Origin: an uncultured virus (IMG/VR IMGVR_UViG_2663763270_000002)
Taxonomy: Duplodnaviria > Heunggongvirae > Uroviricota > Caudoviricetes
DNA length: 64,000 nt
Reading direction: 5' to 3' (one strand)
IMG/VR virus record: IMGVR_UViG_2663763270_000002
Shown: positions 597-59,642 of the stretch, in pieces
How the letters are laid out: every line of letters begins with the position of its first letter
Numbering within the stretch: position 1 is the stretch's first letter
Notes under the pieces: generated by a model
The model's database searches: none
What the model was told of the DNA's origin: nothing
Seen by the model: only the letters and a program-made list of their open reading frames with translations
Translations under genes and position numbers: made by a program

Positions 597-896
597 TCAC
601 GGCTCCACTAGTCCGCTGACCGTGGCATCCGGGAACGTCACGAGGATGTCCCTCATGCTGTCGAGCATCTGACGCACCTGCCGGAGCCCTAGGCCCTCTA
701 GGTGCTGCCGGTAGCGGTCCGGGTCGGCTTGTAGTTTCGCCTTTGCGTCATCAATGCACGGGATGACGACGGCGGCAGTGTCCATGTCGAACACTCGCCC
801 ATCGAAAAGATCATTGATGATCGGCTCGAACTGGGGAGGGATGCGGATATGGTCCGCCATCACTCCGCCGTTGGAGATGATTTCAAACTCTTTCAT
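597..896 (-). CDS. Hypothetical phage protein
   Basis: ORF tightly coupled to neighbours; same position as 14019..14462 in the main phage. Confidence 0.6.
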   Translation of the reverse strand: MKEFEIISNGGVMADHIRIPPQFEPIINDLFDGRVFDMDTAAVVIPCIDDAKAKLQADPDRYRQHLEGLGLRQVRQMLDSMRDILVTFPDATVSGLVEP

Positions 897-3034: not shown

Positions 3035-3734
3035 CCTCTCCACCGTCACCAGCCGGTCGTCGAACATGACGAAATTCGTAGTCTGCATCGGAATCTCAGC
3101 CGTCGCCGGGACGATACCGGAGGATCAAGCGCGGCAGACTCGACACCGCCACCAGCCGGTCCATCTGCCCCGCCATCACATCCACACTGCCCACCGTCGT
3201 CCACAACGCCTGCTCAGCGATCAAGATGTGGAAGCGGCGATCCCCCCGATACAAGAACTGTTGGCGCTCCATCCGCCGCGCCACGCCCTCCTCCACGTCG
3301 TCGACGGGCAGGCGGTGGCGGGCGGCCGAGAATTCGAGCGTCGCGCGCGCATACTCCGACGTTTGCAGAATCCCCGGGATCACCTGGGTCTGGAAGATCC
3401 GCGTGTGCTTGGTCTCCTCGGCCAGCCGCACCAGCTGGGCTTGACTACGCCCTTGCCCGCGGGCGAGCAGGCGCCGCATCTCCATGTAGGCGCCGTCGAG
3501 GTTGTGGAGGGTGGCGAGAAGGTCTTCGATTTGGTCGAGTGCGCCAGCGTGCAGGCAGTAGGCGCGGATGTCGTCGTCGGAGGGGCGCAGCTTCCCGTAC
3601 TCGATCTTGGAGACCTTGGATTCATGCCATCCGGCGAGAGCGGCCATGCCGCGGCCGGACAGTCCTGCGCGGCGCCGCATTTCACGGAGGCGCCGTCCCA
3701 GCGCCTCGCGAGCCTCGTGCGGATTGGTGGTCAA
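3035..3734 (-). pseudogene. XRE HTH + DUF5753-type regulator, frameshifted and 3'-truncated
   Basis: LGRRLREMRRRAGLS..SKVSKIEYG HTH; VIPGILQTSEYARA; +1 shift near 3120; homology appears to stop after FDDRLVTVE. Confidence 0.75.
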
Positions 3735-46037: not shown

Positions 46038-46910
46038 TCACGCGGCCTGACTGGCCGGTGGGGTCATGATTACTTCGTATTCGACGGGCGTCAAACGCCC
46101 GAGGCCGGTCTGCCGGCGCCGCCGGTGGTAGGTGCGTTCGATCCAGGTGACGATCGCGATGCGCAACTCCTCACGCGTGGACCAGGATCGGCGGTCCAGG
46201 ACGTTGCGCTGCAAGAGCGCGAAGAAGCTTTCCATCGCGGCGTTGTCACCGGCCGCGCCTACCCTGCCCATCGACCCTGTCATGCCGTGACGAGTCAAGG
46301 CGTGCACGAACTTCCGGCTTCGAAATTGCGACCCGCGGTCGCTGTGAAGCACACATCCGGCAACGTCGCCGCGCCGGGCGACAGCATTGTTGAGTGCCCG
46401 GACCGCAAGCACCGACTTCATGCGGGAGTCGATGGAATACCCGACGATCCGGTTGGAGAACACGTCCTTCACTGCGCAGATGTAGAGCTTGCCCTCACCG
46501 GTCCAATGTTCGGAAATGTCCGATAGCCACAGCTGGTTCGGGGCATCGGCGGTGAAGTTGCGGCGGACCAGGTCCTCGTGCACCGGCGGGCCCGGTCTGC
46601 CCTTCCCGCCGCGCTTCTTGCCGAACACGCTCCACCAACCTCGTGCCGAGCAGATCCGCCACGCGGTGCGATCGGCCATCGGCTCGCCCGCGGCCCGAGC
46701 CTCGTCAGCGAGAAACCGGTACCCGAACTCCGGATCGTCACGGTGAGCATCGAACAGCGCGTTCGCTCGATACGCCTCGTCGAGTTCGGCAGTCGTAACC
46801 GGTTCGGCGAGCCACCGGTAGTAGGGCTGGCGGGCCAGCCCCAACACCCGGCACGTCACCGCGACGGGAATCCCGTCGTCGGCCAGCTCACGGACGAGCG
46901 GGTAGGTCAT
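46038..46910 (-). CDS. IS3 OrfB DDE transposase
   Basis: WLSDISE, HSDRGSQF, DNAAMESFF. Confidence 0.95.
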   Translation of the reverse strand: MTYPLVRELADDGIPVAVTCRVLGLARQPYYRWLAEPVTTAELDEAYRANALFDAHRDDPEFGYRFLADEARAAGEPMADRTAWRICSARGWWSVFGKKRGGKGRPGPPVHEDLVRRNFTADAPNQLWLSDISEHWTGEGKLYICAVKDVFSNRIVGYSIDSRMKSVLAVRALNNAVARRGDVAGCVLHSDRGSQFRSRKFVHALTRHGMTGSMGRVGAAGDNAAMESFFALLQRNVLDRRSWSTREELRIAIVTWIERTYHRRRRQTGLGRLTPVEYEVIMTPPASQAA

Positions 46911-47200
46911 TTTCCCGGCAGATTCGCCTGCGCAAAATAGGCGGCGGCTCGTTTGAGAACCTCGTTCTCCTGCTCCAGCAGCCGAATCCGGCGCCTGGCT
47001 TCCCGAAGCTCCGCCGCCTCGCTTGAGGTCATGCCCGGTTTCACACCATCGTCGACATCGGTTTGCCGCATCCATTTCGACAGCGTCATCGGGTGGATCC
47101 CGAAATCCGCGGCGACCTGCTCCAACGTCACCCCGTCATCACGGTTGCGAGCCACCCGGACGACATCGTCACGGAACTCGCGGGGATAAGGCTTGGGCAC
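46907..47200 (-). CDS. IS3 OrfA
   Basis: PKPYPREFRDDVV HTH; LEQENEVLKRAAAYF zipper. Confidence 0.93.
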   Translation of the reverse strand: MPKPYPREFRDDVVRVARNRDDGVTLEQVAADFGIHPMTLSKWMRQTDVDDGVKPGMTSSEAAELREARRRIRLLEQENEVLKRAAAYFAQANLPGK

Positions 47201-47827: not shown

Positions 47828-48049
47828 TCACGAGCGTCGTTTGCCGCCGCCGGGCCAGCGCCCGAACACGATCCGGTAGTAGCGGGCTGCGAGCCCGGAC
47901 GCTTCACGCAGCGACATGTGTTGCAGCAGCAGTGTTTGCAACGTGATGAACGGATGCTCGGAGGTCGCCCACTTGGCTTTGCCTTCACCGGTCGTCCAGT
48001 ATTCGTTCAGCTCACGGGACGCACCGGTCTTGCCGTCAGGATCAGCCAT
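47828..48049 (-). CDS. Small hypothetical phage protein
   Basis: RBS AGGAGG; YWTTGEGKAKW..G.WPG. Confidence 0.65.
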   Translation of the reverse strand: MADPDGKTGASRELNEYWTTGEGKAKWATSEHPFITLQTLLLQHMSLREASGLAARYYRIVFGRWPGGGKRRS

Positions 48050-48170
48050 CACGCCTCCTGACATCGGGTCGGCAAGAGAACACCGGCCGCCCCCACCCGA
48101 AAGACGGGCGCGGTCGACCGGCAAGAAGGGGATAGCCTGGCTGCCGTTGCCGGGAGGGCAGGCTATTTCG

Positions 48171-48244
48171 TGGCGGTGTCGCGATTTGAACGCGAGACTC
48201 CAGCTTATGAGACTGGCGAGTTAACCGACCTTCTCCACACCGCT
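48171..48244 (-). tRNA. tRNA-Met(CAT), initiator-like body, no encoded CCA
   Basis: AGCGGTG/CACCGCC acceptor, CCAGT-CTCATAA-GCTGG anticodon arm, TCGCG-TTCAAAT-CGCGA T arm. Confidence 0.9.
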
Positions 48245-48752
48245 ATGCGGCAGGCGCCGAAGGGATCACGCCGTCCGGCCACCTGCCCTGTAGTCGCCCC
48301 GCGAACGGGACTGGTGAGCCGTTACCTCACTGCTCGGCATCCCGTGGTGCCGCAACGCTTACGCGGTGGCGGATGGCTGCCGTAGCCACACCATCCGCCA
48401 GTGAGGACCATCAGCCGAAAACGGAAAGCCCTCTACCGTTACCGCTCATCGCAGCTGACCGGCCTCGTCGTCCGGCGAGTAATCCGATCAGCCACTACCC
48501 GACCTACCGCAATAGACCAGGCCAAGTTAAGGGGTGGGGAGAGTTCCTAGCTCTCCGTCCGGGGCATGGACCGTAAGGCTATGTAATTCCCGGTGCTGCG
48601 ACTTGCCCGCTGAGGCATCGGTTTCCGCCCGCTAAGGCTTCCCCTCAGGCACTCGCCCGTCAGGTTCCCGACAGTCGCACACATTCGCGGCCCGATCACG
48701 CAGTAGCCGCTCACTCTGTCACCACCAGCGCGGCTAGCTAGGCCACGCTTTG
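48245..48752 (-). ncRNA. Candidate ~500-nt structured non-coding RNA
   Basis: No credible ORF; many nested helices; bracketed by two tRNA folds. Confidence 0.55.
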
Positions 48753-48841
48753 CTCCCCGCCCGCGATTCGAACGCGGACCCACCCTGGCCGCACCATCCG
48801 AGGCGCAAGCGCCGGCACTCTTTCCATTGAGCTAGCGGGGA
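48753..48841 (-). ncRNA. tRNA-like element with tRNA-Asn-like body and aberrant extended anticodon arm
   Basis: TCCCCGC/GCGGGGA+G, GCTC-AATGGAAA-GAGT, CCGCG-TTCGAAT-CGCGG; no 7-nt anticodon loop. Confidence 0.8.
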
Positions 48842-48976
48842 AACCGATATGAAGTTGTGGATTCCTTGGGCCGATCCACTGAAGGAGTGTGGTGGCAGCA
48901 CCACGGGCGACCAAGGCAAGTGGAGATGCCAAAACTGGGGCAATCTGCTTTTGGGTACAACTCACCCGCAAATCAG

Positions 48977-49033
48977 ATGGTAGGGCATGATCGGCGGCGG
49001 AAGCCCAATCGTTTGTAACAATTATGTTACAAA
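48977..49033 (-). promoter_or_regulatory. Putative promoter (-10 TACCAT) with AT-rich palindrome
   Basis: TTTGTAACA-ATTA-TGTTACAAA at 49012-49033. Confidence 0.6.
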
Positions 49034-49069
49034 TTTCGTTGAAGGATTGACTCCACCCTGCACCAGCAA

Positions 49070-50458
49070 CTAGACGCCGATCAATTGCCCCGCCAAATAC
49101 TCCTCCACCCGCGCCAACGACACCCGCTCCTGCGACATCGAATCCCGCTCACGCACCGTCACCGCCTGATCCTCCAACGAATCAAAATCCACCGTGATGC
49201 AGAACGGGGTGCCGATCTCGTCCTGGCGGCGGTAGCGGCGGCCGATCGCACCCGCGTCGTCGAACTCCACGTTCCAGTGCTTGCGCAGCTGCGCGGCCAG
49301 ATCCTTGGCCTTCGGGGTGAGGTCGGCGTTGCGCGAGAGCGGCAGCACGGCGGCCTTGACCGGGGCGAGCCTGCGGTCAAGGCGCAGCACCGTGCGCACG
49401 TCCACTCCGCCCTTGGCGTTGGGCGCCTCGTCCTCGGCGTAGGCGTCGACGAGGAACGCCATCAGCGAGCGGGTCAGACCGGCCGCCGGCTCGATGACGT
49501 AGGGGATGTAGCGCTCGTTGTTGGCCTGGTCGAAGTAGCTCAGCTCGGTGCCCGAGTGCTCGGAGTGCGTCTTGAGGTCGTAGTCGGTGCGGTTGGCGAC
49601 GCCCTCCAGCTCACCCCACTCGCTGCCCTGGAAGCGGAAGCGGTACTCGATGTCGACGGTGCGCGTCGAGTAGTGCGACAGCTTCTCCTTCGGGTGCTCG
49701 TAGAGGCGCAGGTTCTCCGGGTCGATACCCAGGTCGGTGTACCAGGCCAGCCGGGTGTCGATCCAGTACTGGTGCCACTGCTCGTCCTCGCCCGGCTTGA
49801 CGAAGAACTCCATCTCCATCTGCTCGAACTCGCGGGTGCGGAAGATGAAGTTGCCCGGGGTGATCTCGTTGCGGAAGCTCTTGCCGATCTGGGCGATGCC
49901 GAACGGCGGCTTCTTGCGCGCGGTGGTCTCGACGTTCTTGTAGTTGATGAAGATGCCCTGGGCGGTCTCCGGGCGCAGGTAGTGCAGGCCCTCCTCGTCG
50001 TCGACCGGGCCCAGGAAGGTCTTGAGCAGGCCGGAGAAGTTGCGCGGCTCGGTCCACCGGCCGGGCTCGCCGGTCTCGGGGTCGCGGATGTCGGCCAGGC
50101 CGTTGGCCGGCGGGTGGCCGTGCTTCTCCTCGTACGCCTCCAGCAGATGGTCGGCGCGGTAGCGCTTGTGCGTGATCAGCGACTCGACCAGCGGGTCGGT
50201 GAAGGTGGCGACGTGGCCGGAGGCCTCCCAGACCTGACGCGGCAGGATCACCGAGGAGTCCAGGCCGACGACGTCCTCGCGGCTGGTCACCATCGACCGC
50301 CACCACTGCCGCTTGATGTTCTCCTTCAGCTCCACCCCGAGCGGCCCGTAGTCCCAGGCCGACTTGGTGCCTCCGTAGATCTCACCGCACGGGTACACCA
50401 GCCCCCGGCGCTTGGCGAGGTTGGCAACGGTGTCCACCTTGGATTTGGTCTTTGACAT
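49070..50458 (-). CDS. glyS: Glycine--tRNA ligase (homodimeric class IIa)
   Basis: [55 protein letters not shown]. Confidence 0.98.
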
Positions 50459-50551: not shown

Positions 50552-51235
50552 TCAGGCGGCGTTCTGTTCGGCAGGTGTGACGGACCTCAAGTACTCGTTG
50601 ATGTCTGTCCAGGTCCACTGCTCATGATGGATGGATTTGTCGGCGAGGATGAAGGTGCCGTTCTTCTCTCGCATGGACAGGGCCGCCCAGTTGATGCCCC
50701 TTGCGTGCAGCATGTCGTGGATCGCCGTCCGGTTCTTCCCGTGCAGCTCACGGTGTGAGAAGTGCGCGCGCGCCAGCATCTGCAACGAGTTCCGCGCCCA
50801 GTCCTGCTGGCGCCACACGAACACGTTCGGCGCGTCCGGCTGTGGCACCACGAACGCCCGCGAATCGAACACCGCCGTCGGCTTCTCTCGGAACAGCCGG
50901 TTGAAGTGCATCGTCATCGTCGACGCCGAGATCGACACCAGCTTGTTCACCTCGTACCCGAACCAGCCGGCCGTGTCGTGCGTATCGAAATCGGTCAGCA
51001 GGAACGTCGCCTCATCCGACTGGACATAGCCGAGCTTGAATCCCTGCATCTCCCGTGCAGTTTCCACCGCGGCGTCGACCATCGTCTGCATGAGGACGGG
51101 GTCGAACGGCCGCCGCATGCCGCGCGTGAACGTGTGGAACGCCTTGCCGTCGACCCGCAGGAACACGCACGAGTTCGGCGTGAGCCGGTAGTTCGAGGCG
51201 GCCTCGTAGGCTTTGATCCGGTCGCCGAGTTTCAT
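50552..51235 (-). CDS. Thg1-like tRNA(His) guanylyltransferase / 3'-5' polymerase
   Basis: RVDGKAFHTFT, YVQSDE, KLVS..AS, FDSR, WRQQD..RNS, KNG. Confidence 0.93.
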   Translation of the reverse strand: MKLGDRIKAYEAASNYRLTPNSCVFLRVDGKAFHTFTRGMRRPFDPVLMQTMVDAAVETAREMQGFKLGYVQSDEATFLLTDFDTHDTAGWFGYEVNKLVSISASTMTMHFNRLFREKPTAVFDSRAFVVPQPDAPNVFVWRQQDWARNSLQMLARAHFSHRELHGKNRTAIHDMLHARGINWAALSMREKNGTFILADKSIHHEQWTWTDINEYLRSVTPAEQNAA

Positions 51236-51492
51236 GCCGCCTCCTGGTGTTCGACGGGTACGGCTCGAAACACGGACCGGTTCGGCGCCGACCGTGCAGG
51301 TTCGAGAAGGCGGTACGTCCATGTCCCGTTCGCGCAGCGGAATGTGACCGGGTTGCCGTCCCTGGACACGAACTCGCTGGGTAATTCGGCAAGGAACTCC
51401 TGGGTGATCGAGATGCGTGGCAGCGGGTTGACGCACTCGATTGCGCTGGCGCCGTCGTCCCGCAGGCGGGCCCGGAAGTACATCACGGTCAC
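51232..51492 (-). CDS. Hypothetical protein
   Basis: Start/stop overlaps on both sides. Confidence 0.55.
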   Translation of the reverse strand: MTVMYFRARLRDDGASAIECVNPLPRISITQEFLAELPSEFVSRDGNPVTFRCANGTWTYRLLEPARSAPNRSVFRAVPVEHQEAA

Positions 51493-52307
51493 GCTGCCGC
51501 CTCGAACAATCCGATCTGCTGGACAAGCTCGCCCTTTGCTCCCGCGGGCGCGACGGCGAGGTTGCAGGCTGTGAAGTCGACGGTCACGATCTCCGTAGCT
51601 GGCGATACCCCATGCCAGTCCTCCTGGTGGGAGCTGGTGTCGATGCCGCAGTTCGGCTCCAACACGATCCCCGTTTCCCGTACGAACTTGTCGTACTCGC
51701 GGCCGCCGGTCCCGTCCTGGTAAAACGGTTTGCCGCTGTAGTCGAACGGCGCCGACATTTGCGGAATGATGAACACCCCATAGTCGGCCACCTGCGCGGC
51801 GACCGCGATCACGTGGTACTCGAACTTTCGGGACGTGCAGCCGGGCGCGTTCTTGGATCGTTTGATCGCCCCGAACGGCGGGTTTCCGATCGCCACATCG
51901 AACCACCCCAGCCCCATGTCGGGCACGTCGAGGATGTCGCCGCAAATCCAGGTCGCTTCGGGCAGGATCTTCCGGCCGACACGTACGTAGTCGGGATTGC
52001 GCTCCACGCACACGAACTCGCGCTCCGGGTCGCCGGCCCAGCGGTTACGGCACCCGTGCGAGAGACGTCCGATCCCCGCGCCGAGGTCGATCAACCGACC
52101 GAACCGGCCGGTCAACTCGACAGAGAAGTCTTGCGCCAACCCTGCCGGGGTGAAAAACGCCCCGTGCGTGGAGTTCGCGGCAGTCGACATCTCCTGGAAG
52201 TTGTCGAGCACAAACGACTTCTCGTCCTCGGTGAGATCACGGTCGAGATCGACGAGAGCAAGCGCTTCAGCGTGCAGCTTCTCCTGCTGCTTCGTCATCT
52301 TCCCCAC
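51489..52307 (-). CDS. SAM-dependent amino-methyltransferase (likely DNA adenine)
   Basis: GAFFTP, DLGAGIG, GNPPFG. Confidence 0.85.
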   Translation of the reverse strand: MGKMTKQQEKLHAEALALVDLDRDLTEDEKSFVLDNFQEMSTAANSTHGAFFTPAGLAQDFSVELTGRFGRLIDLGAGIGRLSHGCRNRWAGDPEREFVCVERNPDYVRVGRKILPEATWICGDILDVPDMGLGWFDVAIGNPPFGAIKRSKNAPGCTSRKFEYHVIAVAAQVADYGVFIIPQMSAPFDYSGKPFYQDGTGGREYDKFVRETGIVLEPNCGIDTSSHQEDWHGVSPATEIVTVDFTACNLAVAPAGAKGELVQQIGLFEAAA

Positions 52308-54904: not shown

Positions 54905-55672
54905 TCACTGCATGTCGATGATGGCGGTGTTGTCGGCGATGGGTGCGTGGTCTCCGTCGAGGATGTGCACCATGGTCGAGTAGCGTTCACCGTTCAATCT
55001 GGTGTCGAGGCGGCAGTGGTAGTGGCCAGCGAACAGGCGCTTCGGTTGCACGACGTCGACGACCCCGCGGAGGACGCGACGGTTGAGTTCGGCTGCGTAG
55101 ATCTGGGCCTCAGGGAACCTGAATGGGTTGCCTTCGATGCACGGGATTCGGATGCCGGCGGGTACGTCGTGGCAGATCATGATGTCGGCGGGTCCGCCTT
55201 CACAGGCGCGGAGGGCGTCGGCTGTGGTGATGGTTTCGCCTGGCCACCATTCGATGTGTGGGCGACGCCAGGGCCGGTCAACGCTGTGCGCGCCGCCCAT
55301 CGCGAGTAAGCGGACTCCGTTCCAGGTCCATCGGTATCCGCGGGGCAGGTACCAGATGCGGGGCCGGATGGGGATGGCGGTGTGGCCGTGGTCCCTGACG
55401 AGTTCGGCGAGCAGGGTGTGGTTGTCGTGGTTGCCGTCGACCCAGCCGAGGACGAGGCCGGTCTCTTCGAGTGCGTCTTGGACGTGATCGAGGAAGTCTG
55501 GTGACCCGTCGAAGTTCTCGCGCATGTCGTAGGCGAAGTCGCCGACATGCAGGATCATCTGTGCACCCTGCTGGGCTGCGTAGGTGATGGTTTTGCGTGC
55601 GTAGGCGGCGTTCGCATGCCAGTCACCACAAACTGCGATCCGGGACGGCTGCAACACCTCGAAGGCAGTCAT
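54905..55672 (-). CDS. Metallophosphoesterase
   Basis: GDWH, GDF, GNHD, HD, GHYH. Confidence 0.9.
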   Translation of the reverse strand: MTAFEVLQPSRIAVCGDWHANAAYARKTITYAAQQGAQMILHVGDFAYDMRENFDGSPDFLDHVQDALEETGLVLGWVDGNHDNHTLLAELVRDHGHTAIPIRPRIWYLPRGYRWTWNGVRLLAMGGAHSVDRPWRRPHIEWWPGETITTADALRACEGGPADIMICHDVPAGIRIPCIEGNPFRFPEAQIYAAELNRRVLRGVVDVVQPKRLFAGHYHCRLDTRLNGERYSTMVHILDGDHAPIADNTAIIDMQ

Positions 55673-58798: not shown

Positions 58799-59620
58799 TC
58801 AACCGGCAATTTCACACACAGCCGCAGAGTTCCGTCCGACGATCCGGCCGCCACGTTCCCACCACGCCAGATATGTGTCGATCAGCCACCGGTTGATGCG
58901 CGCCAAGTCCGGCTCAGGCGGCAGGTCCGCATGCAGCGACAGGTGGTTCAACTGCGCCAGCAGGTCCGCAGCCCGTTCCAACGCTTCCTCTTTCGTGTGC
59001 AGCCCGTGCCGCAGCTCCGTCAGCCACGCCCGCTCAGGTTCCGGCATCGGCAACGTGATCCGCCCCGTGGTCAGTAGCTCCACACCCTGCACACCCAACC
59101 TGACCATGTGATAGGCGAACTTTGCGTCGAATCCGTACACGTCCACCAGCTCGGGCCGGTTCGTGTGTTTCTTCGACTTCACGCCCAGCATCTGGTCTCG
59201 CTGCGACATGAGGTAGCCGGCGAACCGGTCCGCGACCTGCCGGGACAGGAACCGGTCGGGGTGGGCTTGAAGATCGCGGCCGACGTGGCTGGTAACCACG
59301 ATTTCCTGTTCGGGGATGAACATCAGCAGCAACACGGTGGGGTTTCCTTGCGCGGCCAGTCGCGCCCATTTCCGCAGCGAGTACACGGTCAGGTCGAGGT
59401 CACCGGCACCCGAACGCACGCCTTCCGGTTGGGTTCGGAAAATGTACTGCTCGAACCGGTCTAGCCCGATCACGTATTCGGGAGGCTCGATGCACACGCC
59501 CATTTCGTCGCGGTCGTCGGCGCCGGTGGTGACGCCGTGGAGCCCGGACCCGACCTGACCGCGCAGGACCGTATTCTGGTTCGCGATCCGCTGAAATTCG
59601 GCGCTGCCGTGAACGCTCAT
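58799..59620 (-). CDS. DNA pol-beta superfamily nucleotidyltransferase (RlaP-like)
   Basis: GSGLHG..DDRD.MG, GNP..L, RPELV..GFD.K..H..RL. Confidence 0.88.
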   Translation of the reverse strand: MSVHGSAEFQRIANQNTVLRGQVGSGLHGVTTGADDRDEMGVCIEPPEYVIGLDRFEQYIFRTQPEGVRSGAGDLDLTVYSLRKWARLAAQGNPTVLLLMFIPEQEIVVTSHVGRDLQAHPDRFLSRQVADRFAGYLMSQRDQMLGVKSKKHTNRPELVDVYGFDAKFAYHMVRLGVQGVELLTTGRITLPMPEPERAWLTELRHGLHTKEEALERAADLLAQLNHLSLHADLPPEPDLARINRWLIDTYLAWWERGGRIVGRNSAAVCEIAG

Positions 59621-59642
59621 CTGATTTTGTCCTCCCACGTAA

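Follow-up and report, generated by a model that had tools for sequence, protein, structure and literature searches.

A tRNA-like element without a functional anticodon loop adjoins a conserved structured RNA in an actinobacterial prophage

The minus strand of an actinobacterial prophage, analysed here as a 64,000-nucleotide (nt) stretch of DNA from an uncultured virus (IMG/VR IMGVR_UViG_2663763270_000002; Caudoviricetes) that we refer to as the window, carries at positions 48753 to 48841 an element with the body of a transfer RNA for asparagine (tRNA-Asn) and without a functional anticodon loop, which directly abuts a conserved non-coding RNA of about 220 nt. We hold with moderate confidence, on the strength of sequence comparison, that this element is a tRNA-Asn descendant that no longer decodes and that is kept as a tRNA-shaped processing handle, from which the downstream RNA would be released. 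Comparison of the copies establishes the anatomy of the unit formed by the two, their fusion, their conservation pattern and their covariation. A first-pass annotation, made from the letters of the stretch, had described a tRNA mimic and had proposed either an RNase P/Z processing signal for the adjacent RNA, or a decoy for tRNA-binding toxins or defence nucleases. The processing role is the one best supported by comparison, with a conserved RNA next to the element, fusion in 24 of 25 copies and retention of the arms, and cleavage itself is the presumed step.

Outside its centre the element is a regular tRNA body. All 16 pairs of its three remaining arms are intact (Table 1), in agreement with the perfect acceptor stem (U1-A72, G73), the canonical D arm and the TTCGAAT T arm originally described for it, and the nucleotides of the elbow are in place (U8, A14, the GG of the D loop and the UUCGA of the T loop), with U8 and A9 at positions 8-9. 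The stretch from the D arm to the T arm measures 39 nt, against 23 in a canonical tRNA, where it comprises position 26, the anticodon arm and the variable loop. The sequence also bears out the absence of a 7-nt anticodon loop, of GTT, which does not occur in the element outside the T arm, and of an encoded CCA at the 3' end, the bases after G73 being CAAAGC. The assignment to a tRNA-Asn-like body stands as well: the host tRNA-Asn agrees with the element at 5 of 7 acceptor pairs and at G73, and two of the homologous loci (L028 and L033) have a tRNA-Asn(GUU). In the comparison with the host tRNAs, none was a close overall relative.

The stretch that begins directly after G73 is, by its pairing and covariation, a real structured RNA. 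It starts with CAAAGC, followed by a P1 hairpin, UGGUGGUGACAGAGUG, a P2 hairpin, AAUGUG, a multi-helix core and a terminal hairpin, which in the window has 6 base pairs (bp) and the loop CUAGGAA and is followed by CCACC. Across copies this 3' hairpin has 4-6 bp and a 7-9-nt loop (CUAGGAA, CUAGUAA and similar), with CCACC directly after it and eight distinct stems among 18 copies, and the 3' CCACC is able to pair with the GGUGG at the 5' side of the RNA. Over 18 sequences, 97.2% of cells are paired, compared with 85.2% after shuffling and 30-45% in slid controls, and 29 of 48 predicted pairs have changed on both sides, which was matched by none of 500 shuffles. Past G73 the window and the closest related phage contig (L014) share 88% identity for about 250 nt and differ by indels of 1-2 nt, so that the stretch is not coding. 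Searches of Rfam 15 with the window and 25 homologous loci turned up no family for the RNA, which is single-copy in the host genome. At locus L040 the RNA ends 5 nt ahead of the next tRNA, and tRNA-processing enzymes could therefore trim both of its ends, with RNase P acting on the 3' side.

A hepatitis delta virus (HDV)-like or theta ribozyme was considered for the downstream RNA and rejected, with no Rfam ribozyme match in the window and 25 homologous loci (E<=1-10) and, by inspection, no downstream complement of the first bases CAAAGCG that would make an HDV-type P1. One copy of the RNA (L055, positions 570-641; also L088) has a tRNA-like sequence (Rfam tRNA, 42.4 bits) inside it in place of one small hairpin. 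An AACTT-type word occurs around the unit (48842-48860 and 48515-48532 in the window): 7 of 24 copies have it no more than 30 nt ahead of the tRNA-like element, and 14 of 24 have it no more than 25 nt past CCACC. It may act as a signal for processing or be left over from movement of the unit; not being universal, it was dismissed as a general flank. The word CGGATGG, repeated in the tRNA-like centre and the downstream spacer of both the window and L014, was judged compatible with chance.

Copies were sought with words, BLAST or a covariance model derived from the downstream RNA, not from the tRNA, in viral contigs, one genome per species and metagenomes (words), in 267 genomes of the genus (BLAST) and with the covariance model. 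This yielded 25 distinct copies of the RNA in prophages, viral contigs and metagenome contigs, namely the window, 10 viral contigs, eight genome records (all titled Nocardia), two metagenomes, three additions from the genus search (L077, L083 and L086) and one distant copy in another genus (L091, 30 bits). Chance word matches were dropped (10 of 21 viral, 11 of 21 genome and 5 of 10 metagenome stretches), as were identical duplicates (L038, L041, L048, L056, L065-L067, L076, L078-L082, L084, L085, L087-L089). A word of 15-18 nt is invariant partly since it was used for searching; the three copies found otherwise have one base different or the first base missing. BLAST found the RNA in 14 of the 267 genomes of the genus, genome G000 counted, and in none of 364 genomes from 33 other genera of the family, and the covariance model matched one of 150 family genomes and one of 150 order genomes, the same genome both times, with one distant copy. 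Among isolated phage genomes searched by blastn, the element with its surroundings matches only at tRNA-Met (134 records), the downstream RNA has no match at this sensitivity, and a 106-nt query of the element alone gave no match at E<=1. The D-arm word had no match in viral contigs, and BLAST of the tRNA-like element against 201 family genomes returned only partial matches of 22-47 nt, in 12 genomes.

The RNA is preceded in 24 of its 25 copies by a tRNA or tRNA-like element whose last base, N73, comes just before it, the exception being L091, and the junction N73-CAAAGC is conserved, with no CCA encoded. Acceptor stems have 7/7 pairs in 19 of the 21 tabulated copies and 6/7 in the other two; T stems have 5/5 pairs in all 21, and every T loop reads TTCRANY. 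Among 14 distinct acceptor sequences, strands pair with their own partners at 6.9 of 7 positions on average, against 4.1 when partners are swapped. Compensatory changes, which the first-pass annotation had advised looking for in homologues, are present: over 20 aligned copies, 95.0% of cells in the three arms are paired (69.2% when shuffled, 37-51% in slid controls), and 13 of 16 arm pairs have changed on both sides, a value that 0 of 500 shuffles reach. By helix, pairing over 20 homologues amounts to 99.3% for the acceptor, where all 7 pairs have changed on both sides, to 100% for the T arm (20/20), where 4 of 5 pairs have done so, and to 81% for the D arm.

The centre follows no such rule. 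In the 24 copies its length is 10, 17, 18 (three copies), 20 (two), 21 (three), 22, 23 (four), 24, 25 (five), 26, 39 or 42 nt, and the central regions share no common motif or length. Taking as canonical an anticodon arm with a 5-bp stem of at least 4 pairs, a 7-nt loop, U33, a purine at position 37 and 3-6 nt left over, we find a canonical-like arm in 8 of 24 copies. Two of these are the normal tRNA-Asn(GUU) of L028 and L033, at the same position as the window element, and six belong to a second body type (G1-C72, A73) with the loop NUCAAAC (CAA). The other 16 have tetraloops, loops of 5, 6 or 9 nt, no U33, or long hairpins. An Asn-type body is present in 14 copies (counted by eye), of which only L028 and L033 are canonical, and 12 of the 24 copies reach 29 bits with the Rfam tRNA model. 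L014 combines window-like acceptor and T arms with a 76-nt element, a 5-bp stem and the loop CGGAUGG, relative to which the window copy has 9+4 extra bases. Within the sub-lineage formed by the window, L014, L064 and L083, the arms are nearly identical and the centres, of 39, 26, 20 and 42 nt, are unrelated in sequence; in L083, from a second species, this place is taken by another hairpin of equal length. It had been anticipated that a normal tRNA-Asn in related phages, together with a private insertion here, would refute a special role; that pattern is partly seen, in L028, L033 and the extra bases, but loss of the anticodon loop in 16 of 24 copies is family-wide and therefore not a private accident.

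On the window copy ARAGORN, from which a pseudogene or an undetermined type had been expected, called a forced 90-nt tRNA-Ala(tgc), but with only 3/5 standard pairs in the anticodon stem and a 20-nt 'variable' stretch unpaired; its intron mode found no intron. The Rfam tRNA model RF00005 does not match the element at its gathering score (29 bits), and an Rfam search of 1.4 kb gave no tRNA or tRNA-Sec match to it at E<=10. The best 5+7+5 anticodon arrangement has 3/5 pairs and leaves 20 nt over, short of an anticodon arm. Both folds that had been suggested for the centre exist: GGCGC-UU-GCGCC can form a G(CUUG)C hairpin, and in the minimum free energy (MFE) fold (-44.3 kcal/mol) the centre is a single long bulged hairpin and the other three arms are kept. 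The MFE has a z of -1.04 and 29 of 200 shuffles fold as well, so energy alone is not significant; for the 39-nt centre by itself, 25% of 500 shuffles fold equally low, and for the 42-nt hairpin of L083 (-20.9 kcal/mol) 2.2% of 500 do.

Contigs of other sequencing runs bear on whether the sequence is genuine. Run X2, which comes from another study with the same species label and possibly from the same strain, gave a contig identical to the window over 48100-49100 save position 49019. Run X3, under another organism label, has 0 differences in 48753-48841 and 9 in the flank 48849-49059. Since contigs of both runs bear the same 89 nt, the sequence is real, and the assembly error that had been named as a possible explanation is refuted so far as contigs tell. 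The X3 contigs break off at 48739/48740; their loose ends are close to being inverted copies of one another, as if an insertion element sat in the first hairpin loop of the downstream RNA. This run also lacks 16 nt at 48573. None of the runs listed as containing the locus is of RNA. Contigs of runs X4 and X12 span only 48149-48565, outside the tRNA-like element.

The acceptor/T-arm stack and the elbow of the D and T loops are what RNase P, RNase Z and the CCA-adding enzyme recognise, the anticodon is needed for decoding and by most synthetases, and a tRNA precursor in which no CCA is encoded is usually cut by RNase Z. Because the processing enzymes need only stack and elbow, these parts would be kept by selection and the anticodon arm would be free. 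In the mechanism that we propose, a unit of about 310 nt, consisting of a leader, the tRNA-like element as 5' module and the structured RNA of about 220 nt, would be transcribed along with the prophage's minus-strand tRNA cluster, after which an RNase P cut at U1 (48841) would remove the leader and an RNase Z cut after G73 would make the 5' end of the RNA, C48752. Selection would hold the acceptor/T stack and the elbow, and the anticodon arm would drift, shrink or, as in the window, become a long hairpin. It is the fusion, the kept arms, the varying centre, the missing CCA and the real downstream RNA that together lead us to rate a processing handle as most likely.

Several points weigh against this explanation. 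Transcription of the unit and both of its cleavages are steps that we infer from the letters of the DNA. The distant copy L091, in another genus, has the RNA without a fused tRNA-like element, with a normal tRNA-Met 174 nt upstream, so the fusion is not obligatory, and in L072 the upstream element is much reduced (63 nt, acceptor with 6/7 pairs). Eight copies may be working tRNAs, in which case a working tRNA would serve equally well. The covariation among the tRNA-like elements comes in part from tRNAs of differing identity, with at least two body types, rather than from one lineage, and these mixed types, together with the many related prophages of one genus, mean that the shuffle statistics overstate independence. 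The long hairpin of the window folds no better than shuffles and may be junk, not a feature. In run X3, the apparent insertion would part the tRNA-like element from the RNA, and a carried prophage can thus apparently hold a broken unit.

Plain decay would make the element a dead tRNA-Asn with a private insertion, whose adjacency to the RNA reflects gene order passed down by descent and implies no functional tie; the normal tRNA-Asn(GUU) at this place in L028 and L033, the 9+4 bases gained relative to L014, the hairpin of insignificant energy and the RNA of L091 with no tRNA fused to it can all be told that way. Decay should hit stems too, yet the 16 arm pairs of the window are intact, 21 copies have acceptors of 6-7/7 pairs and T stems of 5/5 with compensatory changes, 16 of 24 anticodon arms being abnormal, and the 89 nt are unchanged in X3 despite the differences in its flank. 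It had already been argued that intact pairing in three arms speaks against simple decay; an unconstrained tRNA pseudogene was rejected here, given arm pairs that are 95% intact in 20 copies, with compensatory changes. Unconstrained decay would fit the origin of the element but not its intact stems, and we regard it as rather doubtful overall. A working but unusual tRNA, for example a tRNA-Ala(UGC) that has an extended variable arm or a tRNA from which the central insert is cut out in the manner of a small intron, would explain the ARAGORN call and the intact body and elbow; its anticodon stem would have 3/5 pairs and its 20-nt 'variable arm' no stem, ARAGORN sees no intron, and neither Rfam tRNA nor tRNA-Sec matches at E<=10. 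The identity pair of tRNA-Ala is G3.U70, where the element has C3-G70; the glycine features U73 and G1-C72 are absent too, and taking out the extra bases turns the element into the L014 form, in which the loop (CGGAUGG) has no U33. This makes such a tRNA very improbable. As for an assembly or sequencing artefact behind the odd centre, nothing favours it, the same 89 nt recur in the contigs of X2 and X3 and the same architecture in L083, and its probability is close to nil.

Another proposal is that the element is an integral domain or a decoy, a tRNA mimic that, attached or released, binds tRNA-handling proteins or shields the 5' end of the RNA. Its partners might be the CCA-adding enzyme, the phage Thg1-like enzyme, host toxins that act on the acceptor end or defence nucleases, and specificity might lie in the variable hairpin of the centre. 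Such a role predicts the same conservation pattern as a processing handle does. Genes for a Thg1-like protein, an RlaP-family nucleotidyltransferase and phosphoesterases lie near, with the Thg1-like gene upstream in three other loci; a long hairpin occupies the same site in the window and in L083, although the two sequences are unrelated, and the 3' hairpin of the RNA with CCACC pairing to GGUGG loosely resembles a T arm with an acceptor stem. On the other side, no partner protein is steadily adjacent, MazG or DUF5131 genes standing upstream in most loci with 1.5-kb flanks, anticodon nucleases need the loop that is absent here, and the central regions have no common motif or length. We consider this role somewhat improbable. 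We think it unlikely, and offer it as speculation, that the whole unit represents a new class of actinophage RNA, a tRNA module whose old anticodon arm is now a freely evolving hairpin plus a 220-nt core, that acts on the host tRNA world during infection; the hairpin would then possibly be a specificity or binding element, and the core would end in a T-arm-like hairpin and an acceptor-like GGUGG/CCACC helix. If true, the unit would, for example, soak up tRNA-directed defence enzymes or steer tRNA repair or processing, and would be more than a by-product.

The window is a prophage of 64.6% G+C in a 6.46-Mb actinobacterial genome of about 70% G+C, with terminase, portal, capsid, tail, tape-measure and lysin genes. 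It overruns the end of contig C2 of genome G000 at position 3037; near the other end of the same contig (C2:38167-39452) is a second tight tRNA cluster of six genes (Gln, Gly, Pro, Trp, Leu, Asn). Around the element the minus strand carries, in this order, the Thg1-like gene, the glycine-tRNA ligase gene, a 228-nt spacer, the tRNA-like element, about 500 nt and the tRNA-Met gene (Table 1). The tRNA-Met has 79% identity to that of Bxz1-type mycobacteriophages (BLAST), and its position 1-72 is unpaired, with A opposite C in the ARAGORN drawing. The stretch 48149-48565 (spacer and tRNA-Met) recurs with 0-1 differences in contigs from runs under a third organism label, where the remainder of the region is missing. 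One contig of this type, which we take to be derived from RNA, ends at 48329 in letters that resemble what is presumably library adapter. About 1 kb past the tRNA cluster lies an rve-family transposase gene (insertion sequence element; 46038-47075, minus strand).

The open reading frame of the glycine-tRNA ligase shares 96.95% nucleotide and 97.8% protein identity with chromosomal glyS, the homology spanning exactly 50448-49072, and the G+C content of its third codon positions is 0.95, against about 0.8 in the phage genes around it; a host aminoacyl-tRNA synthetase gene seems to have been captured here very recently. In L014 the Thg1-like gene adjoins the tRNA-like element with no such ligase between them, and the ligase was rejected as a partner of the element, being a copy of a host gene that is absent at this position in L014. 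Bacterial tRNA-Gly is identified by U73, G1-C72, C35 and C36; the element, with G73 and U1-A72 instead, was also rejected as a substrate of the ligase, and the linkage is not conserved. The Thg1-like gene stands upstream of the unit in L014 (protein 77% identical to that of the window), in L044/L081 and, partly, in L025. Minus-strand genes at 50552-51526, 54905-55672 and 58799-59638 encode the Thg1-like protein, metallophosphoesterases and a nucleotidyltransferase of the RlaP family ('RNA repair pathway'), a set that suggests repair of tRNA or other RNA during infection.

Part of the leader resembles the Rfam motif DUF3800-IV below the gathering score (Table 1); the resemblance was not found in the homologous loci searched with Rfam, and the genome has no DUF3800 gene. 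DUF3800 motifs are of unknown function, as given in excerpts of Weinberg et al. 2017 (PMC5737381). A simple sigma-70 promoter and terminator scan of 47900-49300 found nothing promoter-like and a single terminator-like site, which lies on the opposite strand; shuffles give as many. Upstream of the unit, at 49012-49035 (minus strand), is an A+T-rich near-palindrome, TTGTAACA...TGTTACAA, and GTTAYAAT-related words occur at about 6775-6800 in L014 and about 660-670 (minus strand) in L064; these are possibly a promoter or operator.

Table 1. Features of the tRNA-like element, the adjoining RNA and their neighbours in the window
Feature	Coordinates	Strand	Evidence and remarks
tRNA-like element, tRNA-Asn-type body	48753-48841	minus (RNA 5'->3' = 48841->48753)	89 nt, without functional anticodon loop
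Acceptor stem UCCCCGC/GCGGGGA	48835-48841 with 48754-48760	minus	7/7 pairs, U1-A72; discriminator G73 at 48753
D arm GCUC-AAUGGAAA-GAGU	48817-48832	minus	4/4 pairs including G10.U25; GG in loop AAUGGAAA
Central region	48778-48816	minus	39 nt; predicted long bulged hairpin including G(CUUG)C sub-hairpin
T arm CCGCG-UUCGAAU-CGCGG	48761-48777	minus	5/5 pairs
Conserved structured non-coding RNA, about 220 nt	48533-48752	minus (48752->48533)	first base directly after G73
Leader structure resembling Rfam DUF3800-IV	48862-48919	minus	48.5 bits vs gathering score 60.7; E 1e-6; model positions 17-75 of 91
tRNA-Met(CAU), canonical, next in same-strand tRNA cluster	48170-48244	minus	ARAGORN; Rfam 52 bits
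Glycine-tRNA ligase gene (context only)	49070-50458	minus	NCBIfam equivalog, 667.6 bits
Thg1-like protein gene (tRNA 3'-5' nucleotidyltransferase family)	50552-51526	minus	Pfam PF04446, 6.7e-27; PHROG 4717

If the element is a processing handle, it has counterparts elsewhere. Animal cells and a herpesvirus, whose tRNA-microRNA units follow a similar logic, have tRNA-shaped handles for the processing of non-coding RNAs, and mascRNA and menRNA of animal cells undergo RNase Z and CCA steps. Closest in logic to the window unit, by analogy, are these latter two, which excerpts of two reports present as tRNA-like elements of the MALAT1 and MEN-beta long non-coding RNAs (PMC8457004, PMC11693755). In both settings a non-decoding, tRNA-shaped module borders on a longer non-coding RNA and is, or in the window would by analogy be, a site for tRNA-processing enzymes, and the window element has what marks the mascRNA type, a stack and elbow kept without decoding and direct contact with a conserved non-coding RNA. 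Unlike the window unit, mascRNA and menRNA are eukaryotic and lie 3' of the long RNA, whose 3' end is made by RNase P, whereas the window element lies 5' of its RNA, whose 5' end RNase Z would make; there is no sequence relation between them, and no tRNA-like Rfam family matches 48753-48841.

Phages offer further points of comparison. Theta ribozymes, which are minimal HDV-like ribozymes, adjoin phage tRNAs and have been proposed to act in tRNA 3'-trailer processing; in the excerpts that describe them they are small, self-cleaving and found in gut phages of Bacteroidota and Bacillota (PMC10879173). They are like the window RNA in being conserved structured RNAs associated with phage tRNA genes, but the latter differs in fold, is about 220 nt long, matches no HDV family and adjoins a tRNA that is usually without an anticodon. 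RNAC and RNAD of phage T4 are encoded in a tRNA cluster and matured with the tRNAs. They are listed among small stable phage RNAs 'of yet unknown functions' in an excerpt of one report (PMC9697503). T4 belongs to a different phage group, the likeness is one of description only and, to our knowledge, no fused degenerate tRNA has been described for RNAC or RNAD. Among bacterial and phage RNAs, transfer-messenger RNA (tmRNA) and the bacterial Y RNA YrlA each have a tRNA-like domain that lacks an anticodon loop. In tmRNA and YrlA, unlike in the window unit, that domain belongs to the RNA itself, which either forms it or has it embedded within. Both were rejected as identities of the element: ARAGORN calls no tmRNA in the window, Rfam has no match, pair 3-70 is C-G and not G3.U70, and the genome's own tmRNA lies elsewhere; YrlA has no Rfam match on the element, and the only YrlA-like scores, all sub-threshold (20-28 bits vs 69), come from pairs of ordinary tRNAs at other loci. 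With a canonical tRNA-Asn of a phage cluster the element shares U1-A72, G73, the CCCC run of the acceptor and the D and T arms; it differs in having no 7-nt loop, no GUU, a centre of 39 instead of 23 nt and no Rfam match.

The copies form a natural series, from a working tRNA-Asn through shortened copies to long hairpins, all fused to the same structured RNA, which shows which parts of a tRNA serve something other than decoding. A well-supported phage RNA of about 220 nt is now open to direct study, and annotation is affected too, such elements being miscalled, as tRNA-Ala in the window, or missed. Our literature searches returned no description of this unit, nor of any such handle in phages, supplements lying outside the search, and the family of the downstream RNA appears to be previously undescribed. 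It is plausible, from the comparison of copies, that the window element applies the known principle of the processing handle, as in mascRNA and menRNA, to this apparently undescribed family of structured RNA.

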